Virus record (IMG/VR): IMGVR_UViG_3300005573_001011
Span: 55,081 to 119,080 of that record
Source of the DNA: a virus
DNA length: 64,000 bases
Strand: one strand, 5' to 3'
The notes below the pieces were generated by a model. That model was not told the origin of the DNA and searched no databases. It was given only the letters and a program-made list of their open reading frames with translations. Below are positions 1,464-52,731 of this stretch, one piece after another (positions within the stretch are counted from its first letter, which is position 1; every line of letters begins with the position of its first letter). A program made the translations under genes and the position numbers.

Positions 1464-1479
1464 GTTATGGAGAAACTTC

Positions 1480-2022
1480 ATGCAAAAAACTGGGTGTACT
1501 TGCGACTCTACATGCTATAATTTTTCCTGCTCTTGTAACACTACTTGCTATGGTTATCAAGCATGTCAGTACGGATGCGATAGTGGTTCGTACGGAGTGT
1601 CCTGTCCTTGTAATACTTCTTGCTATTCTTTTTCGTGTAGCTGTGATGCTAGGTGCCATAATTATGGTTGCACTTGCAATACGCTTTGCCATGGTTACCA
1701 AACATGTATGTACGGGTGCGATAGTTCTTGCTATAATTATGGCAAAGCATGCGAATGTGATACGACGTGTTATGGATATGTCCCATGTTCGTGCGACAAT
1801 ACGCGTTACGGGTATACATGCACATGCGATGGCTGGTGCGACTCGTATACTCCTTGCTCATGCTACGGCCCAGGATATACTGTATGCACTTGCTATACGA
1901 CATGTTATGGCTATTCCCCGTGCTCGTGCAATAATACGTGTTACGGATTTGTATGTACGTGCAATGCAACTTGTTACCAAGAAAGATTTGGTGCAGATGC
2001 TTTATCGTTCGAACTGTTCTAG
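1480..2022 (+). CDS. Cys/Tyr-rich repeat protein, about 14 CxCxxxCY-type units
   Basis: Units CTCDSTCY, CSCNTTCY, CPCNTSCY, CECDTTCY, CSCNNTCY, CTCNATCY etc.; GGAG upstream of ATG; lies directly after the PanC-like gene. Confidence 0.8.
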   Translation: MQKTGCTCDSTCYNFSCSCNTTCYGYQACQYGCDSGSYGVSCPCNTSCYSFSCSCDARCHNYGCTCNTLCHGYQTCMYGCDSSCYNYGKACECDTTCYGYVPCSCDNTRYGYTCTCDGWCDSYTPCSCYGPGYTVCTCYTTCYGYSPCSCNNTCYGFVCTCNATCYQERFGADALSFELF

Positions 2023-2145: not shown

Positions 2146-2178
2146 AAAAAAAAAGAGAAGCTTCTTTTAGCTTCTCTC
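2146..2178. terminator. intrinsic terminator hairpin of small-gene cassette copy 1 (T-tract on the minus strand)
   Basis: A9-GAGAAGC-ttctttta-GCTTCTC stem-loop. Confidence 0.7.
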
Positions 2179-2457: not shown

Positions 2458-5400
2458 ATGAGAATCACTTGGACGGCGTTTTTGCACCCTTTTACTGCTA
2501 TGGGTGTAATTGCTGTAAACGTGGTTAGAGAACTTTCTAAGCTTGGTATAGACGTAGGAATAAATGTTTTAAACCCTTCTGAGTACTCTCCAACAGATTA
2601 TCCAACCGAGATCCAAAAAGCGGTAGAAAAAGGCTATAGAGAAGATTCTATTAACATCTTCTTTTCTTACCCAGACATCTATGGCAACGTTAGATGCAGA
2701 GTTAACGTTGGATTTACGGGTGCAGACTCTACAGAATGGTATCAAACAGGAGCTGACAAGCCTCCAGCACAGATCTGTAACGAACTAATGGATTACATGT
2801 TAACTCCATCTGAGTACAGTAAACGAATAATGCAAAACTGTGGTGTAGCTGTTCCAATAATAGTTTTCCCACATGGTGTAGATACTGATATATTTAAACC
2901 AGCAAATAAAACTTCGTCTGGGTTTAGATTTCTTTACATTGGTGAGTTATCTAGAAGAAAAGGAACGTTCGACTTAATTTCATGTTTCGATAAATTTAGC
3001 TTCGTTTATCCAGAAGCTACTCTTGTGCTTAGGGCTAATACTCATATGAAGTATTACGATGGCCAAGAGATAGAACGACAATGCCAGCAAAATAAGCAGA
3101 TTACAGTAGTATACGAGAACAGAGGCCAAGAAGACATTGCTAAATATATGCAGAATTCTGATGTTCTTGTCCATCCAACTAGAGCAGATTGGTTTGGAAT
3201 GCCTCCACTTGAAGCTTTAGCTTGCGGTATTCCAGTTATTGCTACAGCTTCTAACGGATACTACGAATTCCTAAAAGACTTTATAGTTCCAGTTAATTTT
3301 AGTTTACGAGAAGTTGGAAACGAGCACCCTTACTTAAAAGGTAAGTGGAATGTTATAGATAGAGAAGATTTACTTGCGAAAATGGTTTTTGCGTACAATA
3401 ATATAGAAAAGTTGACACAAAAGAGCAGGGAAGTATCTGAACGAATTAGAGAAGAATTTAGTTGGAAGAAAGTAGTAGAGAAGTACTTAGTACCATTTTT
3501 AGAAGAAGTTCACGAAAAGCATTTTAAGCGAGAATTAGTAAAAGTAGCGAAACAAGACAACTACAGAATTACAGTTGGGATCCCGACTAAAGACCGTCTT
3601 CTAGAACTCTCACTTCTCCTCATGTCTCTGCTAAACCAAACTTATAAAGATTTCGAAGTAATTATTGTTAACGACTGGTTCGGAAACATCTATGGCAATA
3701 CTACTCTAAATTCGATTATTAGAATGCTCAACGAAAATGGCAATACTGTTACGATTATCGAAGGTGAGAGAAGGGGCCCCCATATCGCTGGACAGAAGAT
3801 TTTAGATAATGCTAAAACTGAGCTAATCTTAAGACTTGACGACGATGTAGTTCTGCAGCCAAACTTTATAGAAGAGCTAGTTAACGCATACAAGGAACTA
3901 ACAAGTAAAGGAAAGAATGTTGCTGCTATTGGACCGATTTATCTTAATCCACATGAAGAGCTCCGCAAACAAGTCTTGCCTCAAAACATGACAAAGGAAG
4001 AGATGGAAAACTACGGAAAAGTCGTATGGGATGGAAGAAACTTATTTTTAACTGGGTGGATACAGATTAACATGCATCCTCGCAACGAACTAGTTAAAGT
4101 AGAGCACTTAAACTCTGGCTTCATGTATAGAAAGAGTGTTGGCAAACAGATCGGAGGGTTGAGAAAAGACTTGTCAATAGTCGGTCATAGGGAAGAAAGT
4201 GATTTCTCTTGGAGAATGCATAAAGCTGGCTACGAACTGTTCGTTTGCCCAACTGCTATCGCTTATCATTTTCATCCGATGATCGGTGGAATAAGAGAGA
4301 CAATGGGCAAAGCAATTGAGAAAGAGAACTGGGATAGAGACGAAACCCTCTTCTTGCAAACTATAGCAGGTGAACTTGGGGCTAAAGATCAGGTTGCGGT
4401 TGTGGTTCTCACTCATGGATCTGACCACATGAATTTGCGGATGCTCCTTGGAGATATACTTAAATTTACTAGTCACTCTCACGAACTTATTGTTGTCAAC
4501 AATGACTCAACGCCAGAATCTCATAGTGACATAGTACGTATAGAACAAGACGTAAAGTCTAGAATTACGAACTCGAAATTCTTTAATTTGCAGAAAGAAG
4601 TGTCGGTAAGCGAAGCTAGAAATTTCGGTGCAAAACAAAGAAGTGAGAAAAGCAAGTACATTTGCTTTATAGATGACGATGCCAGAATTCTTGGAAGATT
4701 TAGCCAAGAAGAAGATTGGCTAGACTTTTTGTGCAGAAAATTCAACGAACAACCCGATATAGCAGCAGTAGCACCAATTTACACGTGGTTCGACGACTTG
4801 AAATGCGACTGCGTTTCGGTGGCTTGCATGCTTACTTCAGTAAAAGTCTGGGAAGTTGTAGGAGGATTCGATCCAGTCTTCGGGAACTTGAAAAAGGGGA
4901 CATGGGGATATGAAGACGTAGACTGGAGTTATAGGGCACAGATACTTGGTTACAAACTAAAGTCAGTAGAGACGAACGCTTTTCCTTTTTACCATGGTGA
5001 CACCACATTTAAACCTAAGTCTGAGTTAATCCAAGCTGGACTAATTAAAGCTCGAGAACTGTTGCTAGCTAAATGGTCAAAACATGATACTGAGAAATTC
5101 TGCAGGACAACTTATCCTCTTACTCGAGAGCAGTTAGAACTTAGAGGAACGAAACTGAACTTAGGGTGCTACTTTATGCATTTGGATAACTTTATAAATG
5201 TAGACGTAAATCCAGACTGCGGTGCGGATCTTGTCCTCGATATAAGAGACTTAAAGAAGAACTTCCAGCCAAATTCAGTGTCTCTTGTTTTAGCATCTCA
5301 CGTTATAGAGCACTTCACTAAAGAAGAGGCTAAACAAATTCTACGCGACATTTACGACATCTTGCTACCTGGAGGTTTCTTAATTGTAGAAGTTCCAAAC

Positions 5401-5625
5401 TGTAAAAACTTAGATGAACGATTAGCTAAAGGAGAGATTGACAAGTGGACGTATGACATTTTCAAGGACGGATGCCCAAAGGGAGTAGCCCAGAAACATA
5501 AGGCTATGTACGAAGAAGACAGTTTGCGTGAACTTTTACAGAGTTGTGGTTTTACGAACTTAGTTAGAAATCCAATCGTTAGTAATAAAGAATCTGACTG
5601 TTTAAGAATAGATGCAAGAAAATAA
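2458..5625 (+). CDS. multidomain glycosyltransferase: GT4 + GT2 + GT2 + SAM-methyltransferase-like domain
   Basis: PHGVD and FGMPPLEALACGIPVIAT (GT4); VGIPTKDR..RLDDD and FIDDDA..EDVD (two GT2); KLNLGC..SHVIEH..PGG (methyltransferase). Confidence 0.9.
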   Translation: MRITWTAFLHPFTAMGVIAVNVVRELSKLGIDVGINVLNPSEYSPTDYPTEIQKAVEKGYREDSINIFFSYPDIYGNVRCRVNVGFTGADSTEWYQTGADKPPAQICNELMDYMLTPSEYSKRIMQNCGVAVPIIVFPHGVDTDIFKPANKTSSGFRFLYIGELSRRKGTFDLISCFDKFSFVYPEATLVLRANTHMKYYDGQEIERQCQQNKQITVVYENRGQEDIAKYMQNSDVLVHPTRADWFGMPPLEALACGIPVIATASNGYYEFLKDFIVPVNFSLREVGNEHPYLKGKWNVIDREDLLAKMVFAYNNIEKLTQKSREVSERIREEFSWKKVVEKYLVPFLEEVHEKHFKRELVKVAKQDNYRITVGIPTKDRLLELSLLLMSLLNQTYKDFEVIIVNDWFGNIYGNTTLNSIIRMLNENGNTVTIIEGERRGPHIAGQKILDNAKTELILRLDDDVVLQPNFIEELVNAYKELTSKGKNVAAIGPIYLNPHEELRKQVLPQNMTKEEMENYGKVVWDGRNLFLTGWIQINMHPRNELVKVEHLNSGFMYRKSVGKQIGGLRKDLSIVGHREESDFSWRMHKAGYELFVCPTAIAYHFHPMIGGIRETMGKAIEKENWDRDETLFLQTIAGELGAKDQVAVVVLTHGSDHMNLRMLLGDILKFTSHSHELIVVNNDSTPESHSDIVRIEQDVKSRITNSKFFNLQKEVSVSEARNFGAKQRSEKSKYICFIDDDARILGRFSQEEDWLDFLCRKFNEQPDIAAVAPIYTWFDDLKCDCVSVACMLTSVKVWEVVGGFDPVFGNLKKGTWGYEDVDWSYRAQILGYKLKSVETNAFPFYHGDTTFKPKSELIQAGLIKARELLLAKWSKHDTEKFCRTTYPLTREQLELRGTKLNLGCYFMHLDNFINVDVNPDCGADLVLDIRDLKKNFQPNSVSLVLASHVIEHFTKEEAKQILRDIYDILLPGGFLIVEVPNCKNLDERLAKGEIDKWTYDIFKDGCPKGVAQKHKAMYEEDSLRELLQSCGFTNLVRNPIVSNKESDCLRIDARK

Positions 5626-5770
5626 GGAATAATTTTAGTTGGTGAAGAGGCCTTAGTGATTAACAGACAAGATTTATGGACTATGAGAACTTATGCAGGA
5701 GACTGTTAAACCAAAGAAAGCGCAGTGGTGCGATTAGAAGAAGACCTGGGTCAAGGGAGGCATTAGACAA

Positions 5771-6553
5771 ATGAAAATTCCAGGAGTTTTGGTGGTTATT
5801 CCATTTAAGGGTAGAATCGACTTGTTGCAGGAAACGATAAAGAGTCTTACAGATATCTACGTTTCTGGGATGTGGTGGTCTCTAATACTTTGGGATGACG
5901 GAAGTACGGATGAAGAACTCAATACTTTGTGGAACTTAGCAAAGAGATTCTTAATAGTGAAACATGAAAACGTTGGCTACACGAACTCAGTGTATAATAT
6001 AGTAGAACTAGCCAAAAGAGATGCGTCTTTCGACTTCTTATTACTCTGTAATAGCGATGTCAAGCTTCACTTAAATACAATGTATTCATTATTAAATCGA
6101 GCTTTAAAGAACCCTAATGTAGCGGTAGTTGGCTGTAAAGTTCTTCACTATGGCAAAGACATTATCCAGCACACCGGAACAAGACTAGTAGATGGAGCAG
6201 TTACTGATCCTTACGTTGGTTTGCACAAGGACGACCCAAGCACTAAGTTTGTCGAAAGAAGGTTGTGGGTAAACGGATGTTGTGCTCTATACAGTCTAGA
6301 TATTCTTAGAAAAGAAAACTTAAATTTCAGCCTAGAATTTGCTCCGGCTTACTTTGAAGAAGCAGACTTAATGACACAGCTAAACCTAATGGGTTACTCG
6401 GTTCTTTACGAACCAAAAGCCATTGTAGAACATTTCGTTGGTGGAACAATGCATTTGCAAAAAGACAAGTTCGAGCCAGTGTTTTGGCAAAATTGGGAGA
6501 AGTACCAGAAAAAGTGGAAAAAATACTTTAATAGTAAGCAACTTCAATTTTAG
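5771..6553 (+). CDS. GT2-family glycosyltransferase
   Basis: VVIP, DDGSTD, NSD, WVNGCCAL and YFEEADL motifs. Confidence 0.9.
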   Translation: MKIPGVLVVIPFKGRIDLLQETIKSLTDIYVSGMWWSLILWDDGSTDEELNTLWNLAKRFLIVKHENVGYTNSVYNIVELAKRDASFDFLLLCNSDVKLHLNTMYSLLNRALKNPNVAVVGCKVLHYGKDIIQHTGTRLVDGAVTDPYVGLHKDDPSTKFVERRLWVNGCCALYSLDILRKENLNFSLEFAPAYFEEADLMTQLNLMGYSVLYEPKAIVEHFVGGTMHLQKDKFEPVFWQNWEKYQKKWKKYFNSKQLQF

Positions 6554-6562
6554 GAGACAAGA

Positions 6563-7627
6563 ATGCTGAGAGTAGCTTTCTATTCGAATAGAGTAAGATT
6601 CGACGGAGATTTCTTAGAAAAACGTGGTTTGGGAGGGTCTGAGAGTGCTCTTATAAACTTGACTACAGTATGGAAGCAAACGTTTCCAGAAGATTGTATC
6701 GTGGTATACAATTCACTTGAAAGAGAGACAAAAGAATTTAGTGGAGTTACTTACAAGAGTGTGCTAGACTTTAAGAGCGAGTGCAAAACATTCGATATAG
6801 ATGTCTTCATAACTCTCAGAGACACTGAACCACTTTTCGAACCTTTTATTGACACAAAGTTGCTACTTTTTTGGAGTCAGGACGATAGTAACGAAGCTGG
6901 AATTAAGACGATAGCAACAAACAAGTATTTGCAGGAGCGTTTGGACACGATCTTAGTAGTTAGTAACCATTCGTATAACGACATTAAACGTATTATTCCT
7001 ACAACTCCCTTAGTTTTACTGAGAAATGGGTATAGGGAAGACTGGGCTGACGATAGCAACATGCGCAGAGATCCAATAGCTGCTTATAATTCCACACCGT
7101 TTCGTGGCTTAAGCATTTTAGCGGAAGTATGGTCAGAAATTTATTGGAAGTGCATGCAGTTAGGAGTTAACCCAGAACTCAGGGTTTTTACTGGCATGTC
7201 GCTTTATCAGCTTCCAGATAGGCCTCAAGAAGAGCAGATCTATAACACTCTTAAGCAATTGCCGAAAGTCACGTTTTGTGGTGCAATACCTCAGCGAAAT
7301 CTTTACGAAGAACTGAAAAAAGTTAAAGTATTGCTTTACCCAAATACTTTTCTAGAAACAAGCTGTATGGCAGTGTTAGAAGCTTTAGCAAATGGAGTAT
7401 GGGTTGTAACAAGTAATTTTGGTGCTTTGCCAGAGCAAGTCGTAGATAAACGAAATGGTTTCTTAATTAGTGGTGACCCTAACTCAAGTGAGTATAAAAA
7501 AGAGTTCGTAGAAAAAGCAGTATACAGTCTTGTGCATAAACTCGAACCAGATAGTGTTGGATTAATCTTTAGCTGGCAAGAACAAGTCTGTTTTCTTCGA
7601 GACTACATATGCAAAATGCTTTCTTAG
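6563..7627 (+). CDS. GT4-family glycosyltransferase
   Basis: GLGGSE, STPFRGL, ETSCMAVLEALANG..GALPE. Confidence 0.9.
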   Translation: MLRVAFYSNRVRFDGDFLEKRGLGGSESALINLTTVWKQTFPEDCIVVYNSLERETKEFSGVTYKSVLDFKSECKTFDIDVFITLRDTEPLFEPFIDTKLLLFWSQDDSNEAGIKTIATNKYLQERLDTILVVSNHSYNDIKRIIPTTPLVLLRNGYREDWADDSNMRRDPIAAYNSTPFRGLSILAEVWSEIYWKCMQLGVNPELRVFTGMSLYQLPDRPQEEQIYNTLKQLPKVTFCGAIPQRNLYEELKKVKVLLYPNTFLETSCMAVLEALANGVWVVTSNFGALPEQVVDKRNGFLISGDPNSSEYKKEFVEKAVYSLVHKLEPDSVGLIFSWQEQVCFLRDYICKMLS

Positions 7628-7641
7628 AAAAAACTTGCAAG

Positions 7642-7652
7642 CTATATATATT
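7642..7652 (+). promoter_or_regulatory. candidate phage promoter motif CTATATATATT (cassette copy 2)
   Basis: TGCAA-G-CTATATATATT upstream of AGGAGG RBS and ATG 7688. Confidence 0.55.
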
Positions 7653-7687
7653 TATTATTGAAAAAATAAAGAAAGGAGGCAGTAAAA

Positions 7688-7843
7688 ATGAACGTGGTAA
7701 TTGAATACATAACTGGTGTTAGTAGGAGATTTAGTAATGTCGTAAGAATGCTCAGTCTACCTGGGCAGGTTATCATCGAGACGAGTGATGGTAGAAAATT
7801 CACGATCGACTCTAACAATGTGTTGTGGGTTCGTCGTGGGTAG
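7688..7843 (+). CDS. 51-aa small protein, copy 2 (MNVVIEYITGVSRRFSNVVRMLSLPGQVIIETSDGRKFTIDSNNVLWVRRG); absent from the ORF track
   Basis: AAGGAGG RBS, ATG 7688, TAG 7843; differences from copy 1 are mostly synonymous or conservative plus one 3-nt indel. Confidence 0.85.
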   Translation: MNVVIEYITGVSRRFSNVVRMLSLPGQVIIETSDGRKFTIDSNNVLWVRRG

Positions 7844-7852
7844 AGACAAGAG

Positions 7853-7880
7853 AGAGAAGCTAAAGAAGCTTCTCTTTTTT
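7853..7880 (+). terminator. intrinsic terminator of cassette copy 2
   Basis: AGAGAAGC-taaagaa-GCTTCTCT followed by a T-run. Confidence 0.75.
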
Positions 7881-7917
7881 TATCTTTTTTAAGAAAGAAC
7901 GGGAGGAGACAGTATAA

Positions 7918-8952
7918 ATGAGTGAAACGAAAGAGCAATTTGGCGAAAAAATTGACGTTTCTATTACTATTGACGAAGTAATGGGTAGAGCTAGGCCGTC
8001 AGAAGACAAGGCTTTCGTAATTATTCAAGATGGCGGTGTTGGTGACGCTATCTGTGCTACACCAATGATTGAGTCTGCTAGAAAAACTTACCCAAACAAG
8101 AAGATTATTGTTGGTTCTTCACATCACGAAATCTTAATTGGCAACCCGAATATTGACGTACTGTATAATTTAGCGTTTCCAGGAGACTTGTTTGAGAAGT
8201 GGGTCAAACCACTTAGGCACTTTGGGTCAGTCATAAAGAGAGATATCTATAACGAATGTGCTCACAAGTTATTTCCAGGACGATTAAGTAAAGTATGGTG
8301 CTGGTTGTATAACGTTCCCTATCCCGGGGATAACATTAGAGTTTATCTGTCAGACCAAGAAGATGCAGAAGCTAAGTATTTCTTAAAGTCATTTCCTAAA
8401 CCCGTTATTATTATTCATCCATTTGGAGCTAGACTAACGTTTAATCCTGAAGTTCAGATAACTGAAAATAAAGATTGGTTTGTAGACCGCTGGACTGAGT
8501 TAGTTAAAGTACTGAGCAAAGACTTCGACATAATACAAGTTGGGGGTCAAAAAGAGCAGCAAATACCAGGTGTTTCTTGCTATCTTTTGGGGTCGACTTC
8601 TTTAAGACAGACAGCTGCTCTACTGAAAAACTGCTTAACTTTCGTTTCTATAGATAGCTTTGTGGGTCACTGTGGTCCAGCTGTTGGTAAGAGGGGAGTT
8701 GTACTATTTGGAAGAAGCAATCCTTGGATCGCTGGTCATGAAGTAAACGAAAACGTATTTGTACCCAACTCGTGTGAGTTTAATGACCTCTTTTGTGGTC
8801 GTCCGCAAGGCTACTTTGGGGACTCAGAATTATATAAAGGGTCACTGAGACCATGGGCGTGCCCGCACCGTAGTTGTATGAGAGCAATTACGACAAATCT
8901 CGTTCTCAAACACTTATATAAGATAATAGATGTAGAGTTAAAGAAAAAGTAA
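7918..8952 (+). CDS. GT9-family (heptosyltransferase-like) glycosyltransferase
   Basis: GGVGDAICATP, IIIHP, KDW..W, SLRQTAALL..FVSIDSFVGH..VVLFG; Cys-rich C-terminus. Confidence 0.85.
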   Translation: MSETKEQFGEKIDVSITIDEVMGRARPSEDKAFVIIQDGGVGDAICATPMIESARKTYPNKKIIVGSSHHEILIGNPNIDVLYNLAFPGDLFEKWVKPLRHFGSVIKRDIYNECAHKLFPGRLSKVWCWLYNVPYPGDNIRVYLSDQEDAEAKYFLKSFPKPVIIIHPFGARLTFNPEVQITENKDWFVDRWTELVKVLSKDFDIIQVGGQKEQQIPGVSCYLLGSTSLRQTAALLKNCLTFVSIDSFVGHCGPAVGKRGVVLFGRSNPWIAGHEVNENVFVPNSCEFNDLFCGRPQGYFGDSELYKGSLRPWACPHRSCMRAITTNLVLKHLYKIIDVELKKK

Positions 8953-18700: not shown

Positions 18701-21700
18701 TTCCAGGTGCAAAATTAGAAGTTTCTGGTGGAAATATATTAGTAACCGCAACGAGTCCAACTGTTCAGCTTAGCGGTAGTATAACGAGTGGTAGATTTGG
18801 GCAAGATAGTGTCGGTAGTTTTATTGCATCGGACACAAACAGTGCAGCATTACGTTTTCTAACCAATAATGGTTCTCTAAATGAGTGGGTGAGAATAACA
18901 GCAAATGGCAGAGTCGGCATTGGAACGACTGGACCAACTAATACATTACATGTTGCTGGCACTTCAACCTACAATGTAGATAGTGGAATAGCTTTAAGAG
19001 TATCGGATGCAACGACAACAACGAAAGGGATAAATATTGGTTATGACACAAATCTTGATAGGGGCTTCTTACAGGCAGGAAACTTTGGACAATATTACAG
19101 TGACTTATTATTGAATCCAAATGCAGGCAATGTAGGTGTCGGAACGACGGCACCAAATGCTAAATTAGAAGTTGCAGGCACAATTAGAGCGACATCGTTT
19201 GCTAGTCCTCCAAGTGGTAGCGGGTCTAGCCTTGAGTTGGGTTGGAATGGAACATATGGCATAATTCAAGCCTACGATAGAACCGCAGATAGTGTAAAGC
19301 CATTGGTGCTTAATTACAATGGCGGAAATATAATAATGATTCCTACTGGTACTGGTAACGTCGGCATTGGGGCAACGAATCCAGGAGCAAGAGTAGATAT
19401 TGTTCCTTCGTCTTCGAGTGACGTAGTTTTCAGAACCAAATCTTTGCAGTCCACCGCTCCGCTTGGAACTGAACTTGTCTCAAATGGTAACTTTTCCACG
19501 GTTCCTGACACTTCTTGGACATGGGGCAGTGGGTGGACACATGATACGACAAATTTAGAAGCTGACCATACGCCTGGAAATACTGCTGCTTTAACGCAAA
19601 ACATTAATGTGGTTAATGGGCAGACTTATCACGTACAACTAACCATAAAAAATAGAACGGCGGGTTCAGTTACTCTTGACATAAATGGGGTTTATATTTA
19701 CCTCTATAGTTCAATCACTACTTTCGTTACTAACGGTACTTTTAGCCGCTCTCTCGTTGCTAACACGACAGGGTCGGCAACCTTGCGTATTACCCCAAGT
19801 TCCGATTTTAATGGTAGTGTAGATGATATTTCGGTCAAGCAAATTACTGGAGTTTCTCAACCCAATTTTAGTTTAGTGGATGATGCGAGTAGTGTGGTAG
19901 CTGAGTTGAGGGGGAAAAACTCTCTTAGTAATATCGGCTTGGGAACAGATTCTCTTCGCTACAACACGACTGGTTATAGTAATTGTGCGGTAGGTACGAG
20001 TGCTCTTTATAGTAATACTACTGGTTATGAGAATACTGCAGTAGGTACGAGTGCTCTTTATAATAACACTACTGGTTTTTTTAATACTGCGCTAGGTGCA
20101 AAAGCTCTTTATACTAATACTACTGGTATAGGGAACTTAGCATTAGGCAGAGAGGCTCTTTTTAGTAACACTACTGGTTATTATAATACTGCAGTAGGTA
20201 TGAGTGCTCTTTATAATAACACTACTGGTTATTATAATACTGCAGTAGGTATGAGTGCTCTTTATAATAACACTACTGGTTATTATAATACTGCGCTAGG
20301 TATAGGTGCTGGGCAGTACATTGCAGACGGATCATCCCCTAACCAAACTTCATATAATTCTGTCTATTTGGGTTATAATACAAAAGCATCGGCTAATGGG
20401 GATACTAATGAGATAGTAATTGGATATAATGCTACAGGAGCAGGAAGTAATTCTGTTGTTCTTGGAAACGACTCTATTACAAAGACTATATTAAAAGGCA
20501 AAGTCGGCATTGGAACGGCGGACCCCCCAGAGAAATTGACTGTCTATTCGCCATCTTCAACCGATGCTTTTATTCGTGTCTCCTCTCCAGATGGTTGTAA
20601 AGCAGGGATCAAGTTTGGTGAAGACCAGAATTCATCACAAACATGGGGACACAGAATTTTATACGATGGATATAACGATCTTGTTTTATTCCAAAATATT
20701 CGTAATACAGTAGTGAATGAGGTAATGGCTTTCGATAGTAGCAACAGGGTCGGCATTGGGACGACGAGTATGAATGTAAAGCTTGCTGTCAATGGAGCAA
20801 TAGAGTCACTTACAACACCTAGCAGTGACATGAATACAGCCGGACTTATTCTAAAAGACGAAACTACCAGCGGAAGATGGCAGGTACATTCGCATGGAGA
20901 CATACTTAGGATGTACAATGGTTCTATCGAAACCATTGTAGGGGAACAAACTTCAACAATACTTCTTAAGGAAAACATTGTCCCCTTAACTGGTGCCTTA
21001 GATAAAATCAAGCAATTACACGCCATCTCCTTCAAGTTTAAGCCTGAAATTTATGGCGGAAAACAGAGTATCGGTTTTAGTGCCGAAGAGGTGAGGAACA
21101 TTATACCAGAAGTCGTCACCATGGATAAAGATGGCGTCTATCCGATTTCTATTAACTACGGGTTGTTAAGCACAGTTGCAATTCAAGGTATTAAGGAGCT
21201 TTATGGAAAAGTCAGGGGTATTGAGACAACGGGACAAGGGAATCTAGTAATAAACCAAGGCAACGTCGGTATTGGAACGACTACTCCAGGTGGTTCATCC
21301 ACAGTTGGAACGAAAGTATTGTCTATTTCCGCCGGCACAGAACCAAGTGGCGGTGTAGATGGTCAGGTAAGTCTGTTTAGCAAGGATGTTTCTAATTCTG
21401 CAGAACTCTTCGTTATGGACGAAGCAGGAAACAAGACTCAATTAAGCCCACACCCTGGAGACTTCTTAGATAATCTACCAGTTGACGATAGGCCATATCC
21501 TTGGGCATACTTGGCTGAAAATGAGTATCTTGGAAAGAGGATAAAAGTAGATTTAGCGGGTTTGGTGGCCGCCATAGAGAAGTTGACTGGCGAGAAGTTC
21601 ATGTATATTGAAGACATTCCGCGACGGAATTGGGACGAAGATCAAGAAGCTCAAAGACTTGCTCGTGAGAAAGAAATACAAGCTGTCTTGCAACAGATAG

Positions 21701-21861
21701 CCGATCTTGAGCAGAAAATTGAATCTGAAGCAGACGCAGAAAAGAAGCAGGAATTAATCAAGCAGAAAGAGGAGATTGTCGTTCCAGAGCCTTATGTGAA
21801 GAAGAACCTGCCCAAGTGGATAGCTGCAAGACTAAGACAGGAGCAGATGTCTGAAGCCTAA
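12712..21861 (+). CDS. giant tail fibre/adhesin: collagen-like Gly-X-Ser repeats, two CBM5/12-like modules, C1q-like domain, 14 VGIGT modules, NTTG repeats, S74-type chaperone
   Basis: SGYSGI/EGLSG repeats; WDSTTTYYVNDVVYHEGSSYVC twice; GNVGIGTTxP repeats; LKENIVPL..IGFSAEEV..INYGLL..IQGIKEL. Confidence 0.85.
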   Translation: MLIQTFARGLSGYSGYSGIAGTAASSGYSGISGYSGYYGYSGYSGISGYSGIEGAEGLSGYSGFSGYSGVSGYSGIEGLEGLSGYSGVSGYSGISGYSGISGYSGIEGAEGLSGYSGISGYSGISGISGYSGYSGLEGIEGLSGYSGISGYSGISGYSGLEGAEGLSGYSGISGYSGISGYSGLEGVEGLSGYSGISGYSGLFGISGYSGISGYSGIEGTEGYSGYSGVSGYSGISGISGYSGVEGAEGLSGYSGIEGAQGLSGYSGISGYSGIEGAQGLSGYSGISGYSGIEGAQGLSGYSGISGISGYSGISGYSGISGISGYSGAQFVGSSGYSGISGYSGISGYSGISGYSGISGYSGITGISGYSGISGISGISGYSGISGYSGISGYSGIEGTEGLSGYSGISGYSGISGYSGISGYSGLEGAYSASGYSGISGYSGISGYSGLSGYKGLNWTGNWDSTTTYYVNDVVYHEGSSYVCVQENINQEPPNEDYWQLLALAGVPGYTSQQASMYRSGANQPIPNVTWTKVQLNAISFDPYNICNVSNYRIKPTEAGYYLVVGYGSIDLGSGNVFVVAIYKNGSLLVYGTDVALQSGIGYTRSIASQIVYMNGSTDYLELWCYQQSGTTRSLLSGSENTYLSIVSIAGPQGSSGYSGLSGYSGISGYSGIQGLSGYSGISGISGFSGYSGLEGTEGLSGYSGVSGYSGISGYSGISGISGYSGAQFVGSSGYSGISGYSGIEGVEGLSGYSGISGYSGIEGAEGLSGYSGISGYSGISGYSGISGYSGIEGVEGLSGYSGRSGYSGISGYSGIEGVEGLSGYSGISGYSGVSGYSGIEGLSGYSGISGYSGISGYSGVSGYSGIEGTEGLSGYSGISGYSGISGLSGYSGISGYSGISGYSGLEGVEGLSGYSGISGYSGISGYSGIEGVEGLSGYSGISGYSGYSGISGYSGVEGAEGLSGYSGASGYSGISGYSGIEGLSGYSGISGYSGVSGYSGISGISGYSGISGYSGLSGYKGLNWTGYWDSTTTYYVNDVVYHEGSSYVCIQENINQEPPNEDYWQLLALGGTSGYSGISGYSGISGYSGISGYSGIEGAEGLSGYSGVSGYSGVSGYSGISGYSGIEGAQGLSGYSGRSGYSGISGYSGISGYSGIEGVEGLSGYSGISGYSGISGYSGISGTSGYSGISGISGYSGIEGVGGLSGYSGISGYSGISGYSGIEGGQGLSGYSGISGISGYSGISGYSGVSGYSGISGISGYSGRSGYSGVSGYSGTSGISGYSGISGISGYSGAQFVGSSGYSGISGYSGCSGISGISGYSGISGISGYSGRSGYSGISGYSGISGYSGISGISGYSGVLPPGSSGQTLRHDGSNWVANSLIFNDGTNVGIGTTNPGAKLDVDGTIYGQSIRLNRPGDASYIYRDISETGNISIENYCGGINLETGTVGTDRASRIYIQSTGNVGIGTTTATGKFTIKAKDETYTGLLYMEASGSTNAWNMAFDSATAPNLWLQYNGSSTPIMLWRNDGSVGIGTTSPSNLLHVYGTSNIVARFERFTSGIANEGAIEVVGNDASNNKYSLYIGSSPSKGLIRTLQSVPLHFGVNSGINVTIDTSGNVGIGTTGPVANLHIQQTTGTGISLRRTGGEAIFQIVGDGGANYLAMDTATSNLYIGGTPTGAGGQYPTMTVGANNGNVGIGTTSPLGKLHIVYPEVCIPIFENNYGSGLGLNRILMKTYLQGYTYIEMNSNNQGTPFSWKIGLTDSADRFRILRESSEFLSILNTGNVGIGTTEPVGNLDIEATAVNTIGHLVVNRANYGGLGGELTIRNSAGGANAAGAIAFELDGSTAFGSDESNASNAEIRAVNNGILSNSTDLLFSNWSGSAENVNMIIRYNGNVGIGTTDPQAKLHIEGGGSGYVLRIGSSGASGIVNYAAGGGGTSTVSVFGRGGLDFNWGDASVRVYDTGATRLLKLGENAGSGQNVHVIMGINGNVGIGTTIPGAKLEVSGGNILVTATSPTVQLSGSITSGRFGQDSVGSFIASDTNSAALRFLTNNGSLNEWVRITANGRVGIGTTGPTNTLHVAGTSTYNVDSGIALRVSDATTTTKGINIGYDTNLDRGFLQAGNFGQYYSDLLLNPNAGNVGVGTTAPNAKLEVAGTIRATSFASPPSGSGSSLELGWNGTYGIIQAYDRTADSVKPLVLNYNGGNIIMIPTGTGNVGIGATNPGARVDIVPSSSSDVVFRTKSLQSTAPLGTELVSNGNFSTVPDTSWTWGSGWTHDTTNLEADHTPGNTAALTQNINVVNGQTYHVQLTIKNRTAGSVTLDINGVYIYLYSSITTFVTNGTFSRSLVANTTGSATLRITPSSDFNGSVDDISVKQITGVSQPNFSLVDDASSVVAELRGKNSLSNIGLGTDSLRYNTTGYSNCAVGTSALYSNTTGYENTAVGTSALYNNTTGFFNTALGAKALYTNTTGIGNLALGREALFSNTTGYYNTAVGMSALYNNTTGYYNTAVGMSALYNNTTGYYNTALGIGAGQYIADGSSPNQTSYNSVYLGYNTKASANGDTNEIVIGYNATGAGSNSVVLGNDSITKTILKGKVGIGTADPPEKLTVYSPSSTDAFIRVSSPDGCKAGIKFGEDQNSSQTWGHRILYDGYNDLVLFQNIRNTVVNEVMAFDSSNRVGIGTTSMNVKLAVNGAIESLTTPSSDMNTAGLILKDETTSGRWQVHSHGDILRMYNGSIETIVGEQTSTILLKENIVPLTGALDKIKQLHAISFKFKPEIYGGKQSIGFSAEEVRNIIPEVVTMDKDGVYPISINYGLLSTVAIQGIKELYGKVRGIETTGQGNLVINQGNVGIGTTTPGGSSTVGTKVLSISAGTEPSGGVDGQVSLFSKDVSNSAELFVMDEAGNKTQLSPHPGDFLDNLPVDDRPYPWAYLAENEYLGKRIKVDLAGLVAAIEKLTGEKFMYIEDIPRRNWDEDQEAQRLAREKEIQAVLQQIADLEQKIESEADAEKKQELIKQKEEIVVPEPYVKKNLPKWIAARLRQEQMSEA
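12736..16785 (+). repeat. coding low-complexity Gly-X-Y repeat (SGY/SGI/EGL triplets)
   Basis: Gly at every third residue over roughly 1100 aa, with heavily varied synonymous codons. Confidence 0.95.
19950..20300 (+). repeat. 42-bp/14-aa coding tandem repeat ALYxNTTGxxNTA(V/L)G
   Basis: About 8 units; two adjacent units identical at DNA level. Confidence 0.9.
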
Positions 21862-22992: not shown

Positions 22993-23886
22993 ATGAAATT
23001 TGTTTTTATCTTAACTTTGCTTGTCTTGCTTTTGGCGCCAGGTTACACTGCATCTTATGACAAATTTCACTCTCAGTTTCCAGGAGTTACTGATGAAAGA
23101 GATTTTGTCAATTTCGAAAACTGGATTGTAGAAGTTAAGACAGTCGGTTATGCGTTGGGTATTCTTCCTGAGAAGTTTAGAGGGAAAGAGAAGAGTTGTC
23201 TGAGCATCGGAACGTTTGAGTTACAAGCGAGTGGTTTCGTTGTGCAAGGCGGGTTTATAGTGGCAGCGAACCATGTAGTCTCACCTCACTACGTTCTTAT
23301 AAAGACAGATTACCACGTAGTTTGGAAAGTCCCAGTTACTAGTGTTCTTTCGAAAACTATAATTATTAATGAGTATATACCAGCTACTGTTATTTGGCAA
23401 GACGAAAAAGCGGATATAGCTGTCCTTCTCCCAGTGTACGACCGTAATATGACTCTAGAAGGAGTGTCCTTTAAGATGGAGAGTGCGGCCGTTGAGGAGG
23501 GTGATGCAGTTTCAATAGTAGTTAGAGAAGTGTTCGAAAATGGGGAGCGTGGCTCTTGGCACGAGATCAGACAAGGACGTGTTATATCGCCATATCCTCT
23601 TTCTGTATTTACTCCTGAGTTTGGAGACTTACACCTCTTAACTCAAGCTGAGTTAGAGCCAACGGACATAACTCATTCTACTACTCTCTACCCTGGAGAT
23701 AGTGGCTCGCCATTAATTGCTTACAAAGAAGGCGAACCCGTAATAGTTGGTGTTGTAACTAAAATGATAGCACTTCGTGTAACTCTAACTGATGTTGTAG
23801 TCTTTTACTATGCAACAAGAATAGACAAGGCAAAAAGATTTATTGAAGCATATATAGATTTACAGAGAAGGGAGAAAATAAATTGA
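22993..23886 (+). CDS. trypsin-like serine protease with signal peptide
   Basis: ASGFVV, AANHVV, ADIAVL, PGDSGSPL; hydrophobic N-terminus. Confidence 0.9.
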   Translation: MKFVFILTLLVLLLAPGYTASYDKFHSQFPGVTDERDFVNFENWIVEVKTVGYALGILPEKFRGKEKSCLSIGTFELQASGFVVQGGFIVAANHVVSPHYVLIKTDYHVVWKVPVTSVLSKTIIINEYIPATVIWQDEKADIAVLLPVYDRNMTLEGVSFKMESAAVEEGDAVSIVVREVFENGERGSWHEIRQGRVISPYPLSVFTPEFGDLHLLTQAELEPTDITHSTTLYPGDSGSPLIAYKEGEPVIVGVVTKMIALRVTLTDVVVFYYATRIDKAKRFIEAYIDLQRREKIN

Positions 23887-25337
23887 AGTTAGATTTTCCA
23901 ATTAGGTCCTGTACTATTGACTTAACTGAAAGATGCAACCTACGATGTAAGTACTGCTTTACTTATGGAGTGGGCAAGCGAGATTTAACTTTCGAACAAG
24001 GAAAAAAGACTATCGATTGGTTATTCCGCGATGAAGTAAGTCAAGCCGACGACATTAGTATAGATTGGTGGGGGGGTGAGCCTTTCTTAAAGTTTGACTT
24101 GATGAGACGCTTGAGTGACTATGTTTTAGAGAAAGCACATAAGACTAGGAAAAGAGTAATGATGGGTGGGACATCTAACGTTACTCTGTGGACACCAAAA
24201 GTAATCGATTGGATGAATAACCATAACATCTATTTCCTAATGTCTATAGACGGCGTTGGCGCAGCACAAGATACATTTAGACCGATGGCAGGGAAGAAAA
24301 AGAGCAGTTGGAACGTAATAAAGAGAAGATTGCCGTATATCGTTAGTAAGATTCCGTTTATAAAGTCTAGATCATCCCCTGCACCAGCAACGATACATCT
24401 TTTTGCAGATTCAGTAAAAGAGCTCTATAATACTTACAAGCTAAAAGACCAAACGTTTTCTCCAGTCTTCGAGATGGAGTGGACTGACGATAAACTCAAG
24501 ATAGCGAAAGAGCAGTTATTTGCACTAGCTGATTTCATGATTGAGTTAGCGAAGAAGAGTGAAAGACTAGCAGTTAAGCATTTTGACGATGGAGCAGCAA
24601 AGCTTGAAACGGGATCAATAAAACCAGAATGGCCATGTGGAGCTGGGAGGTTCTACGTTGGTATCGGTGTCGATGGATACATTTATCCATGTCATCGGTT
24701 TAATAAGTATGATCGGCCTGTAAGTGAGAAGTACTGTATTGGTAGTATAGACGAAGGAATTACTAGACCAGACTTAAGAGAACCGTTCTTAAAATTCTTA
24801 GACTTGGCACCTCCAGAGAAGTGCAAAAACTGTAAGTGGTACGGTAGAACGTGCAATATCGGCTGCTATGCTATTAACTTTGACTTAACTGGAAGCATCT
24901 TCACTCCTGGAGAAAATCATTGCAGATGGATGGAAGTGCAAGGTGAAGCTATTGAATACTTTTACAAGAAAATTAAAGAAAATAATCTACCGCTTCCAAA
25001 ACCGGCTTTTCCACAGCCACAAATAGGAGGAATGAGAATGGCAGGGTCATGTATATGCAACAATATGTGTTACTTAGAGGGAACTGAGAGAGAAGTAAAG
25101 ACAGTAGACTGGTCTACAGGATTCGCTTGTCAGTGCTATAACACGAACTACGCTGGTGGTTTAGCAGACCAAGCAAGGCAATTAACTCAAGAAGAGATGC
25201 TAAAGATTTCACCTCGTCCAGCTAGTCAGTATGAGCTATTACAGAAGTTGGTAAACAGACTAGACGAAATGCAAGAGACTAACAAGCAGCTTCTTGATGT
25301 GATTACGAAGCTCGCAAGTTCGTTAGCAGAAAAGTAA
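23883..25337 (+). CDS. radical SAM/SPASM protein with Cys-motif C-terminal extension
   Basis: CNLRCKYC, GGEP, CGAG..GYIYPCHRF, CKNC..C..GC SPASM cysteines; tail contains CICNNMCY and CQCYNTNY. Confidence 0.92.
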   Translation: MKLDFPIRSCTIDLTERCNLRCKYCFTYGVGKRDLTFEQGKKTIDWLFRDEVSQADDISIDWWGGEPFLKFDLMRRLSDYVLEKAHKTRKRVMMGGTSNVTLWTPKVIDWMNNHNIYFLMSIDGVGAAQDTFRPMAGKKKSSWNVIKRRLPYIVSKIPFIKSRSSPAPATIHLFADSVKELYNTYKLKDQTFSPVFEMEWTDDKLKIAKEQLFALADFMIELAKKSERLAVKHFDDGAAKLETGSIKPEWPCGAGRFYVGIGVDGYIYPCHRFNKYDRPVSEKYCIGSIDEGITRPDLREPFLKFLDLAPPEKCKNCKWYGRTCNIGCYAINFDLTGSIFTPGENHCRWMEVQGEAIEYFYKKIKENNLPLPKPAFPQPQIGGMRMAGSCICNNMCYLEGTEREVKTVDWSTGFACQCYNTNYAGGLADQARQLTQEEMLKISPRPASQYELLQKLVNRLDEMQETNKQLLDVITKLASSLAEK

Positions 25338-51024: not shown

Positions 51025-51540
51025 TTACGTAGTTTCTCCTTCTAGAGCAGACAGGATAATTGCCCACTTAACTTCGTGAATACCTTCTGGTGAAAGACTT
51101 TCGAGGATCTCTCTTGACGTATGCTTTGCTAAAATCCGTACTGTATCGAGATTTCCAAACAGTAACGCATTTTTAAGTGCTTTGCCATTGTCAAAGTTAG
51201 GGTCAGCTCCTAGAGACAACAGTAACCGTATGAGCTCTTTATTAGCGTCTTTACTTATATCTATAAGTAAAGCACTAAGTTGTCTAGGGGTTCTTAACAG
51301 CTTGTTATCGACAAGCACGTCTTGAAAGATGTCAAAAGCTTGTTCTTGATGACGAGCAAGTACAATCGACAAAGCAACTCTTATTTCGGTTTCGCTTGCT
51401 TCAGATGCCAAGACCCTAAATGTCTTTTTGTCTACTTTATCGGAGTATACGTGGTGGCACTCACTTTTGCTTCTACATATGGGTCTGCTAATGCAGTCAA
51501 AGCAAGCTGTTTCAAGAGCGTAGATAACTAAATCATTCAT
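51025..51540 (-). CDS. CxxCIxxPxC-module paralogue 6 with ankyrin repeats
   Basis: CFDCISRPIC; LIRLLLSLGADPNFDNGKALKNALLFGNLDTVRIL. Confidence 0.85.
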   Translation of the reverse strand: MNDLVIYALETACFDCISRPICRSKSECHHVYSDKVDKKTFRVLASEASETEIRVALSIVLARHQEQAFDIFQDVLVDNKLLRTPRQLSALLIDISKDANKELIRLLLSLGADPNFDNGKALKNALLFGNLDTVRILAKHTSREILESLSPEGIHEVKWAIILSALEGETT

Positions 51541-51549
51541 TTTTCTTCC

Positions 51550-52626: not shown

Positions 52627-52680
52627 AGAGCCTCCAACTAGGTGTAGAGCTACTTCTAGTTTAGGAGGCTCTTTTTTTTT
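52627..52680. terminator. hairpin with T-run
   Basis: AAGAGCCTCC..AACTAG / CTAGTT..GGAGGCTCTT followed by a T-run. Confidence 0.7.
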
Positions 52681-52731
52681 CGTAGTGTTCTAACTCTCGG
52701 TGCTAAAACATAACCACACACATTTTTCTCC

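Follow-up and report, generated by a model that had tools for sequence, protein, structure and literature searches.

Enzyme-made thioethers have so far been known from small secreted peptides, the QhpC subunit, and archaeal CrpA (2026). In the PapB/PapA (freyrasin) system, the radical SAM/SPASM enzyme PapB is reported to form Cys–Asp or Cys–Glu thioethers in a peptide substrate (PMC10739248, PMC9413430). The streptococcal RaS-RiPP enzyme NxxcB is described as making a Cys–Asn β-thioether in an NxxC motif, with Asp tolerated (PMC9389541); its substrate NxxcA is short, bears a leader, and is controlled by quorum sensing. QhpD, by the account in PMC13692751, installs Cys–Asp and Cys–Glu thioethers in a protein subunit rather than in a natural product and relies on both an RRE and the QhpC leader; QhpC itself is a small subunit bearing three cross-links; it lacks a tandem repeat and is no component of a virion. 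The same article (2026) describes CrpC of Methanococcus voltae as a SPASM radical SAM enzyme with a predicted RRE, which places ranthionine cross-links on Cys-rich CrpA—a protein with a leader-like N-terminal region of 47 residues and ten tandem copies of a 17-residue Cys motif (C-x-x-Q/D).

As described there, CrpC/CrpA sets a precedent for protein-sized substrates and is the system closest in concept to the phage locus reported here, where a protein-sized repeat would likewise be the substrate; it is archaeal and cellular, however, with a repeat unit and length unlike those of our locus, and the words "phage" and "viral" are absent from the main text of PMC13692751. PapB represents the best-matching family for the enzyme of our locus, and both are radical SAM/SPASM proteins. 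In contrast to PapA, the putative substrate here is leaderless, 180 aa long (up to about 1200 aa in relatives), and built on a CxC[N/D]xTCY motif with three Cys per unit, and it belongs to a phage tail module rather than to a peptide gene cluster. The likeness to NxxcB/NxxcA is one of motif only ([N/D]xxC), and the SCIFF substrate is a short Cys-rich peptide. We propose that the 180-aa protein is probably a leaderless structural rod of a tail-fibre module, cross-linked by radical SAM thioethers, and on our best reading neither a secreted RiPP nor a metallothionein; gene linkage and the kinship of the enzyme family are together what suggests the cross-links.

The window, by which we mean the whole stretch of DNA analysed, comprises 64,000 nucleotides (positions 55,081 to 119,080 of IMG/VR record IMGVR_UViG_3300005573_001011). 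Its source contig is an estimated 38% complete and comes from a large uncultured phage. The repeat gene and its immediate surroundings contain the following features:

1469..1472, + strand: GGAG ribosome-binding site, read from the sequence, 7 nt upstream of the ATG of 1480–2022
1480..2022, + strand: coding sequence of the cysteine-repeat protein, 180 aa, ATG start
1494..1725, + strand: 91-nt super-unit in two copies (1494–1584 and 1635–1725), 74% identical to each other
1978..2019, + strand: non-repeat C-terminal tail QERFGADALSFELF, residues 167–180
2154..2177, + strand: terminator-like hairpin, then a T-rich run, 132 nt past the stop of 1480–2022

The initial annotation had pointed to this ORF as a Cys-repeat polymer of about 14 units, and the observation stands, down to each of the seven units it quoted. 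The protein contains 39 Cys (22%), 23 Tyr, and 22 Thr, arranged in 12 CxC[D/N/Y]xxCY units plus two variant C[Q/M]YGCDS units. The CxC units start at residues 6, 17, 42, 53, 64, 91, 103, 114, 126, 136, 148, and 159, with spacings of 11 (five times), 12 (three times), 10 (once), 25, and 27 residues; each of the two long gaps houses one variant unit. The consensus, C-[S/T]-C-[N/D]-x-[T/S]-C-Y-G-[Y/Q]-x(1-2), spans 11–12 residues, and each turn of this length conserves three Cys and one Tyr. Over 10,000 residue shuffles, C.C...C (10 occurrences in the protein) averaged 1.67 with a maximum of 8, and [N/D]xxC (12 occurrences) averaged 4.07 ± 1.70 with a maximum of 11. The Cys pattern exceeds chance.

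The units have also diverged in their codons, as annotated: across 66 unit pairs, mean identity is 0.58 for nucleotides and 0.50 for residues, identical residues share a codon in just 151 of 330 cases, and Tandem Repeats Finder reported nothing on 1480–2022. The 91-nt super-unit, each copy of which comprises two CxC units and one variant unit, is the only larger DNA repeat of the gene. Because the first unit begins at residue 6, the protein has no N-terminal leader, and it closes with a short non-repeat tail; both features had been claimed for it. The tail is disordered in the AF2 model, and comparable aromatic tails (KYAPDVWL[LF]Y, Y[ER]YPW[TS]) close other stand-alone or C-terminal forms of the repeat. 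The terminator-like hairpin is weak evidence by itself, one having been found against 1.2 expected in shuffles. An overlapping 180-aa ORF at 1550–2092 was rejected as a frame shadow; Cys-free shadow ORFs likewise lie beside repeat genes elsewhere. Searches with the 180-aa protein returned no Pfam or NCBIfam family match and no PHROG match.

Repeat matches number 24 among 1.84 billion representative proteins. A scan of 185,579 species genomes with alignment A1 yielded two pattern matches, neither of them related; tblastn of the repeat protein against 50,697 GenBank phage records (low-complexity filter on) gave no match, and the ESM Atlas gave no usable one. The repeat is a rare module confined to phage DNA. 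Elsewhere it sits in J-type central tail fibres, baseplate-like proteins, and other large phage proteins, at about 2 to 47 copies per carrier, and in most relatives it is internal to proteins 250–1200 aa long. The non-repeat parts of some carriers account for matches to phrog_31 (central tail fibre J; E = 5e-39 and 5e-35) and, in one case, to the baseplate protein phrog_7378 (E = 2e-11); weak tail or adsorption PHROG matches occur in only 5 of 30 further carriers. Unit copy number appears to set rod length in phages.

This distribution bears on the metallothionein-like protein that had been offered as one identity for the ORF. A Cys content of 22% with CxC motifs would suit a metal-sequestering protein, and nothing beyond that composition spoke for one. 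Neither Pfam nor NCBIfam yielded any match for the sequence, although metal binding may occur without one; the family is found in phage DNA only, set within tail proteins; and the strict periodicity, the conserved Tyr, Gly, and Asn/Asp, and the predicted β strands are unlike metallothioneins. We regard this identity as scarcely credible.

In this genome, a collagen-like fibre gene is followed by genes for a LamG protein, a 126-aa phrog_9017 fibre protein, and two enzymes, and then by 1480–2022, which shares its strand with the collagen-like fibre, LamG-domain, and phrog_9017 genes and whose GGAG lies 16 nt downstream of the stop of a PanC-like gene. The 126-aa protein, encoded at 54727–55104 of the contig, shares 52% identity with its counterpart directly before the stand-alone repeat gene of another locus, L011. 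The repeat gene is located in, and closes, a tail-fibre gene module. This context, together with the repeat's presence in J-type central fibres and baseplate-like proteins, supports the fibre or tip component that the initial annotation had suggested, in its structural rather than its metal-loaded aspect. The PanC-like and transglutaminase-like partners it had named were rejected as core components, since homologues are absent from 14 related loci and from a clustering of 22 contigs.

The AF2 model of the 180-aa protein (pLDDT 64.7, pTM 0.47) places two short strands in each unit. Its top VIA matches are all β-solenoids or β-rolls (Z 7.6–10.9, rmsd 4.3–10), including CbpF (Z 10.9), UspA1 (Z 9.7), TibA (Z 8.2, rmsd 4.3 over 157 residues), and MpAFP (Z 7.6, rmsd 4.6); Foldseek with the same model returned nothing at E ≤ 0.001. 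The likeness to YadA-type heads, TibA/Ag43, RTX β-rolls, and β-helical antifreeze proteins lies in the narrow β-solenoid fold of the model, at sequence identities of only 2–12% and middling model confidence, and a shared solenoid fold type is no sign of relatedness. For a 498-aa fibre with embedded repeats (L008; 7-sequence alignment), mean pLDDT was only 48.6. The solenoid matches use Ca2+ or hydrophobic cores, enzyme-made thioethers not being theirs; β-solenoid rods of this kind are also stabilised by disulfides.

Disulfides or bound metal could hold the structure here, with Cys-rich antifreeze β-helices as a parallel, while the radical SAM enzyme would do other chemistry, on this protein or another—for example epimerisation, a C–C or Tyr cross-link, or an oxidation of the Cys-to-formylglycine type. 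The three conserved Cys and one Tyr per turn and the solenoid-like model would fit such an arrangement. An odd number of Cys per unit does not pair off neatly, however, and the occupancy of unit position 4 over 151 units (N in 97, D in 36, Y in 14) shows an N/D alternation more in keeping with a thioether acceptor than with a metal ligand. Given the acceptance of Asn and Asp reported for NxxcB, N/D at position 4 points to this position as the likely thioether acceptor.

The same position admits a reading in which the fibre module is glycosylated, its N-x-T/S sequon being used by the downstream glycosyltransferases and its Cys serving the fold only. T or S occupies position 6 in 72 of the 97 units with N at position 4, and four glycosyltransferase genes (GT4/GT2 fusion, GT2, GT1, and GT9-like) lie downstream at 2458–8952; such genes border the repeat in L099 and L007 too, and the hyper-glycosylated β-helix of TibA is among the better structural matches. 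Yet 23 of the 37 units whose fourth residue is D keep T/S at position 6. Because T/S persists with D, it is not bound to an Asn sequon, and we therefore rank the sequon reading low. A Pfam glycosyltransferase stands beside the repeat in three places—L007 (1 of 10 viral loci), L099 (1 of 2 metagenome loci), and the window—whereas the radical SAM enzyme is near-universal. Glycosylation, which would be compatible with cross-linking, is a highly improbable account of the module.

The enzyme that would cross-link the rod is encoded further along the window:

23883..25337, + strand: radical SAM/SPASM enzyme, proposed maturase of the repeat protein
25050..25151, + strand: two repeat-like units in the C-terminal extension of the enzyme (CICNNMCY at residue 390, CQCYNTNY at residue 416)

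This enzyme is a radical SAM superfamily member with a SPASM domain. PF04055 (Radical_SAM) reaches 34.1 bits (cut-off 29.5), PF13186 22.4 bits (21.5), and TIGR04085 42.5 bits (27). CxxxCxxC occupies residues 18–25, followed by the SPASM domain (about 252–347) and the C-terminal extension; C18, C22, and C25 are invariant across nine orthologues, and the orthologue alignment also gives six invariant Cys in the SPASM region (252, 270, 314, 324, 328, and 347). The top NCBIfam families are PapB (NF047865; E = 1.6e-61), the nif11-type (5e-44), and the CXXX-repeat type (3e-41), with QhpD fourth (TIGR03906; 5.9e-41) and then SCIFF (TIGR03974; 3e-39). Among the best 25 of 58 matches listed, the best families are all Cys-thioether maturases; the NxxcB model is absent from those 25. 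A database search with the enzyme recovered 164 homologous proteins, none informatively named, and 50,697 GenBank phage records held no close orthologue (best 28% identity).

All of these family scores fall below their NCBIfam cut-offs. PapB reaches 208.4 bits against 340, and four orthologues score 198–252 bits on NF047865, also under 340; at 208 bits the enzyme is, by NCBI's rule, not a PapB-family member. Scores under every cut-off mean that the reaction could differ from thioether formation, which favours a solenoid held by disulfides or metal; that the enzyme's best families all form thioethers on Cys-containing peptides argues the other way. The repeat-like units in the enzyme's tail bear on the same choice. 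The C-terminal extension carries the substrate pattern once or twice in 8 of the 9 orthologues aligned and in 97 of 113 homologues, and CxCxxxCY there could be a metal- or cluster-binding unit instead of a substrate site, again in keeping with a metal-held solenoid.

The N terminus of the enzyme distinguishes it from leader-dependent maturases. Its best solved structure is 5wgg/5why (E = 1.7e-24), which we take to be the SCIFF maturase CteB (PDB title: "Radical SAM domain protein"); the radical SAM core and SPASM region align, the alignment begins at chain residue 96, and the N-terminal domain of CteB has no counterpart here. Matches to models of leader-dependent maturases likewise begin at model positions 75–96. 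The ORF cannot be extended upstream, and 108 of 113 homologues have CxxxCxxC beginning by residue 40. No N-terminal recognition domain (RRE) was found on the enzyme, nor any PqqD match among the scanned neighbours (window ORFs and viral loci). The enzyme thus appears RRE-less, although a divergent, separate RRE may exist.

Repeat and enzyme occur together whichever is taken as the starting point. Starting from the repeat, phrog_1802 radical SAM genes stand 0–3 genes away in 8 of 10 viral loci scanned, and BLASTP detects an orthologue of the window enzyme in 11 of 14 repeat loci (E = 1e-29 to 1e-98 at 31–38% identity). Among repeat loci of an independent metagenome collection, the enzyme subfamily is present in 39 of 68, lying less than 1 kb from the repeat in 29 of those 39, and in 21 of the 25 loci of at least 5 kb—the co-occurrence with SPASM enzymes that the initial annotation had proposed to look for. 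The four long loci without the enzyme are L099, L126, L129, and L148; a group of short contigs with 6-unit proteins also lacks it within the at most 4.9 kb available. Starting from the enzyme, with an alignment of nine orthologues as query (a search with the single enzyme sequence found nothing), we find a close orthologue, defined as at least 31% identity, on 17 non-redundant viral contigs, of which 15 encode a repeat protein; the exceptions are L026 and L027. Another 60 loci have radical SAM genes that are no more than distantly related; none of them contains this repeat, and 4 contain other Cys patterns.

Clustering of 657 ORFs from the 22 contigs placed the enzyme in 21, the repeat in 20, and the next family in only 8. 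A family of about 240 aa adjoining the enzyme, found in only 8 of the 22 contigs, was rejected as a partner, HMM search having found no counterpart in this genome. The repeat is tightly, not absolutely, linked to one radical SAM/SPASM subfamily. Here the enzyme gene lies 22 kb from the repeat gene, against 0–4 kb in most relatives, and this distance is a further point for a disulfide- or metal-held solenoid with an enzyme acting elsewhere. Such a solenoid would, however, leave the tight and often adjacent linkage across unrelated phage types unexplained, and we judge it unlikely. The repeat's place in the fibres of other phages and a near-constant enzyme of cross-linking type together suggest a tail part that is probably chemically stapled.

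The initial annotation had further proposed a multi-core, RiPP-like substrate. As far as this means a substrate of the SPASM enzyme, two-way co-occurrence and kinship to thioether maturases favour it; in the usual RiPP sense it fails, as the leader is absent, the enzyme lacks an N-terminal domain for recognition, and the repeat is internal in most relatives. By extension, the 180-aa form could be a free, possibly released product outside the virion, for instance a polymer with antimicrobial or host-modulating action that is cut into its units. In favour of this, the protein is small and made up of repeats, its short, distinct C-terminal tail could be a follower or recognition peptide, the other known settings of its enzyme family are RiPP pathways, and peptidase genes flank the enzyme (trypsin-like, 22993–23886; ClpP-like, 25363–26124). 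Those peptidases are not kept beside the enzyme in other contigs, however, and neither a leader or RRE nor a transporter gene was found among the window ORFs scanned. Unit follows unit directly, and no cleavage site is conserved between them; elsewhere the repeat is internal to tail and baseplate proteins, and its gene here, the last of a tail-fibre module, retains an L011-type neighbour. A free product is, on this evidence, quite unlikely.

We return to the stapled rod as the preferred reading. In the model we draw from sequence—substrate role, thioether, joined residues, fold, and virion presence alike—the 180-aa protein would be a phage-specific structural repeat in stand-alone form, folding as a narrow β-solenoid rod with one unit per turn and forming part of the tail-fibre apparatus. 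The RRE-less enzyme at 23883–25337 would staple it before or during assembly. A 5′-deoxyadenosyl radical would abstract hydrogen from a side-chain carbon of the acceptor, as in PapB, NxxcB, QhpD, and CrpC; the acceptor would most likely be the Asn/Asp at unit position 4, which forms the 12 [N/D]xxC motifs with the position-7 Cys. A cluster-bound Cys thiolate would next close the thioether. Stapling along the array would yield a redox-independent, protease-resistant rod.

More tentatively, and with appreciable doubt, we entertain a wider reading: that unrelated phage lineages—jumbo myoviruses, J-fibre siphovirus-like phages, and TAG-recoded phages—thioether-staple a length-tunable, host-binding solenoid, and that the tail units of the enzyme itself replace an RRE. 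Each 11–12-residue turn would carry one or more staples, and the CxCxNMCY...CxCYNxxY units of the enzyme's tail would dock onto or template the growing repeat stack. The 180-aa protein would then be the module encoded alone, the simplest natural substrate.

In the literature searched, with subscription journals and supplements outside the search, no paper ties radical SAM/SPASM enzymes to cross-linking of phage fibres or virions. In one article the label "antibiotic synthesis gene" is given to a radical SAM "maturase" of a phage (PMC12801897), and another deals with other systems (PMC7159879). If radical SAM thioether chemistry is indeed at work on the phage particle, the locus would supply a leader-independent, repeat-directed maturase together with a 180-aa all-substrate protein, a pair handy for enzymology and for engineered cross-linked rods. 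For the phages themselves, the finding bears on fibre stability where disulfides cannot form and, if true, would give a function to an orphan radical SAM gene group of uncultured phages. It would add a new kind of virion maturation to proteolysis and to the isopeptide chainmail of HK97.

Two genes of the window anchor the analysis, the repeat gene and the radical SAM/SPASM gene proposed to encode its maturase:

1480–2022, + strand: coding sequence of the 180-aa repeat protein, with its start 16 nt past the stop codon of the preceding gene
7 nt 5′ of the repeat-gene ATG, + strand: GGAG, read from the sequence
2154–2177, 3′ of the repeat gene: terminator-like hairpin, weak (1 found vs. 1.2 expected)
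23883–25337, + strand: radical SAM/SPASM enzyme, with CxxxCxxC at residues 18–25 and a SPASM domain

The repeat protein contains 39 Cys, 23 Tyr, and 22 Thr. Its 12 CxC units, spaced 10–12 residues apart, begin at positions from residue 6 to residue 159, and each of two longer gaps between them holds one variant unit, C[Q/M]YGCDS. The first unit follows immediately on the N-terminus, MQKTG, and the C-terminal end is QERFGADALSFELF. Such a pattern greatly exceeds chance expectation: there are 10 occurrences of C.C...C (shuffle mean 1.67, maximum 8; 10,000 shuffles) and 12 of [N/D]xxC (4.07 ± 1.70 in shuffles). Judged from their DNA, the units are old and have diverged—Tandem Repeats Finder reported no repeat in the gene, nucleotide identity between units averages 0.58 pairwise, identical residues share a codon in 151 of 330 cases, and a 91-nt super-unit is present twice in copies 74% identical. 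The initial annotation's description of a leaderless unit array with a tail and diverged codons was borne out in every detail.

A Cys-free 180-aa ORF in another frame (1550–2092, + strand) overlaps the repeat gene; because comparable shadow ORFs accompany repeat genes at other loci, we regard it as arising from the codon pattern of the repeat. A near-identical gene copy lies on a 1.9-kb metagenome contig (L095:69–605; 96% by tblastn). Visual comparison shows a T65N difference and a short altered stretch, residues 82–94, that lacks one residue and Cys84; every CxC cysteine is retained.

No Pfam, PHROG, or NCBIfam model matched the repeat protein. Relatives were recovered by a word-indexed protein search (6), among 1.84 billion representative proteins (24 matches at E ≤ 0.001), and at 14 loci on viral and 68 loci on metagenome contigs; none were found in 185,579 species genomes. 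One of the 24 matches, P0013, was judged spurious, its repeat being unrelated. The consensus, drawn from 151 units in 14 proteins, is C1-[S/T]2-C3-[N/D]4-x5-[T/S]6-C7-Y8-G9-[Y/Q]10, with a period of 11–12 residues. At position 4, 97 units have N, 36 have D, and 14 have Y; at position 6, 77 have T and 26 have S; C7, Y8, and G9 are present in 129, 113, and 83 units, respectively.

Arrays of about 2 to about 47 units occur as leaderless all-repeat proteins (the window protein, 180 aa; those of loci L003, 204 aa, and L007, 185 aa; and the homologue P0022, 79 aa), as C-terminal arrays following a globular N-terminal domain and ending in Y[ER]YPW[TS], or as mid-protein arrays inserted within 340–1200-aa proteins. 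Where the non-repeat parts of carriers can be named, profile matches identify them as tail parts: central tail fiber J at L013 and L014 (phrog_31; E 5e-39 and 5e-35) and a baseplate-like protein at L009 (phrog_7378; E 2e-11). Five of 30 further carriers gave weak "tail" or "host range and adsorption" PHROG matches, and the remaining carriers matched nothing. Stand-alone repeat proteins look like split versions of repeat-bearing fibers. A 126-aa protein of the window is 52% identical to the protein directly 5′ of the stand-alone repeat gene of L011, the window's LamG protein resembles one encoded two genes ahead of the L003 repeat gene, and the small protein preceding the L007 repeat gene has the N-terminus common to the fused form P0009. 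Set beside these tail-part carriers, a free RiPP-like product is an improbable reading of the repeat protein, and a metallothionein, for all its 39 cysteines, a barely credible one.

The main result is that the repeat is linked to a single radical SAM subfamily. Starting from the repeat, 8 of 10 viral loci scanned had a phrog_1802 radical SAM gene 0–3 genes away, and orthologues of the window enzyme (31–38% identity) were present in 11 of 14 repeat loci; L009, one of the three loci without it, proved to have the enzyme 17 kb off on its contig (L018). In the reverse direction, searching with a nine-orthologue profile gave 79 viral loci, comprising 19 with close orthologues (17 non-redundant contigs) and 60 with distant relatives only. 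Co-occurrence of the arrays with SPASM enzymes, which the initial annotation had proposed to look for, is strong both ways: 15 of the 17 contigs encode a repeat protein (missing in L026 and L027), and an independent metagenome set holds the enzyme in 39 of 68 repeat loci, or 21 of 25 when restricted to loci ≥5 kb. The repeat was found in 0 of the 60 loci with distant relatives only, four of which carry other Cys patterns. Clustering of 657 ORFs from 22 contigs placed the enzyme in 21, the repeat in 20, and the next most widespread family in 8. In 29 of the 39 enzyme-holding metagenome loci, no more than 1 kb separates the enzyme from the array; the 22-kb distance in the window is an outlier. 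Because carriers of the pair span J-fiber phages, two other jumbo contigs (L025 and L028), and TAG-recoded phages, whole-genome shared descent does not explain the pairing.

At L110, L111, L151, L152, and L129, TAG is apparently read as a sense codon; enzyme genes of the TAG-recoded carriers are intact under table 15 (E 1e-66 to 1e-84) but fragmented under table 11, and L129 has a 1610-aa frame open under table 15 only. A ~240-aa family without a Pfam match (L003:8623–9366 and relatives) adjoins the enzyme in 8 of 22 contigs and has no counterpart in the window phage's genome. Some of the more distant radical SAM genes have other Cys repeats nearby (L035:12795–13670; L052/L054:2454–3191), one a CTCNCNY array after a globular domain and one a CKCKCK array in a 246-aa protein. 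The C-terminal part of the latter we take, by eye, to resemble an endosialidase-chaperone (Peptidase_S74) domain.

The best NCBIfam matches of the window enzyme were PapB (1.6e-61), nif11-type, CXXX-repeat type, QhpD, and SCIFF, every one a family of maturases joining Cys to another residue, with scores under all family cut-offs (e.g., PapB, 208 vs. 340 bits). The best solved structure was 5wgg/5why, whose alignment begins at chain residue 96. Since upstream extension of the ORF is impossible and the cluster motif begins within the first 40 residues in 108 of 113 homologues, the subfamily lacks the N-terminal recognition domain that leader-dependent maturases have, in keeping with a leaderless substrate. 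After the SPASM domain, CICNNMCY and CQCYNTNY (25050–25151) match the unit pattern of the repeat protein and are followed by an amphipathic helix; of 113 homologues, 97 carry such units, as do 8 of the 9 orthologues aligned. They may act in recognition or templating, serve as a pseudo-substrate, or bind metal. Some homologues (P0032 and P0145) are 737–845 aa long with intein or Hint domains (PF14890 and PF07591; precomputed Pfam).

The window covers positions 55081–119080 of a 119-kb viral record with an estimated completeness of 38%. The source phage is a large myovirus, with a tail sheath sharing ~30% identity with the sheaths of phiR1-37 and AR9/PBS1. The genes around the pair are as follows:

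Start of the gene order leading to the repeat gene, same strand: gp23-like major capsid protein
Contig 51222–53438, upstream of the window, after the capsid gene, same strand as the repeat gene: 739-aa collagen-like tail fiber
After this fiber, same strand: 404-aa LamG-domain protein
After the LamG gene, same strand: 126-aa protein matching PHROG 9017 "tail fiber protein"
Between the 126-aa and PanC-like genes, same strand: 197-aa protein
Last gene before the repeat gene, same strand: 289-aa PanC-like protein with an HxGH motif
2458–8952, right after the repeat gene: four glycosyltransferase genes
11262–12697, after the glycosyltransferases: second transglutaminase-like and PanC-like gene pair
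12712–21861: 3049-aa collagen-like tail fiber with CBM5/12 modules and a Peptidase_S74 intramolecular-chaperone domain near its C-terminus
22993–23886, overlapping the enzyme start by 4 nt: trypsin-like peptidase
25363–26124, next gene after the enzyme: ClpP-like protease
62006–62986, − strand: second radical SAM protein, 326 aa (phrog_7293), unrelated to the window enzyme

The 326-aa protein weakly matched NCBIfam tungsten-cofactor and mycofactocin maturases, and no ORF of the 119-kb record besides the repeat gene is Cys-rich in such a pattern. Neither protease gene is conserved beside the enzyme in the other contigs of the 22-contig clustering. Two paralogous cassettes, in which the gene for a small transglutaminase-like protein precedes one for a PanC-like HxGH nucleotidyltransferase, lie directly 5′ of the repeat gene (29–1463) and before the 3049-aa fiber (11262–12697); their PanC-like members share 32% identity over 112 aa (E 2e-13), and their transglutaminase-like members are barely alike (E 0.054). 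The initial annotation had counted both proteins as partners of the repeat, yet no homologues were found beside the repeat genes of other phages (14 related loci; 22-contig clustering).

One gene of the glycosyltransferase block encodes a 1055-aa protein in which GT4, two GT2 domains, and a methyltransferase are fused, and another is GT9-like (heptosyltransferase family). Glycosyltransferase genes flank repeat genes in the window, L099, and L007, and most units contain N-x-T/S, which could then be a glycosylation site; T/S at position 6 is kept, however, where position 4 is D, and we consider this reading very unlikely.

The N/D alternation at position 4, three residues after Cys1 and three before Cys7, would by analogy suit a thioether acceptor of the NxxcB/PapB type. 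NxxcB is reported to join Cys to the β-carbon of Asn in NxxC, with Asp tolerated (PMC9389541); PapB joins Cys to Asp or Glu (PMC10739248, PMC9413430), QhpD does so inside a protein subunit, and CrpC likewise on a Cys-rich repeat protein (both PMC13692751). In some relatives the enzyme is present as two or three paralogues, which could, speculatively, correspond to the three Cys per unit. Disulfide or metal stapling of the same cysteines, with a different role for the enzyme, is conceivable but unlikely.

Our literature search turned up no account of phage particles being cross-linked by radical SAM enzymes. The closest published concept is CrpC/CrpA (2026, PMC13692751), a system that differs in having an RRE and a leader-like region; the words phage and viral are absent from the main text of that paper. 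We class the window's repeat gene as the simplest form of the putative substrate in the enzyme–repeat system.

An AF2 model of the repeat protein (pLDDT 64.7, pTM 0.47) shows each unit as two short strands and the tail as disordered. Foldseek returned nothing significant with this model, and the top VIA-align matches were all β-solenoids and β-rolls—YadA-type heads, TibA, Ag43, RTX, and a β-helical antifreeze protein. Because of the maturase analogies, the N/D at position 4, and the solenoid-like model and matches, we propose that the repeat protein is probably a stapled solenoid rod of a tail-fiber module, its stapling chemistry being predicted.
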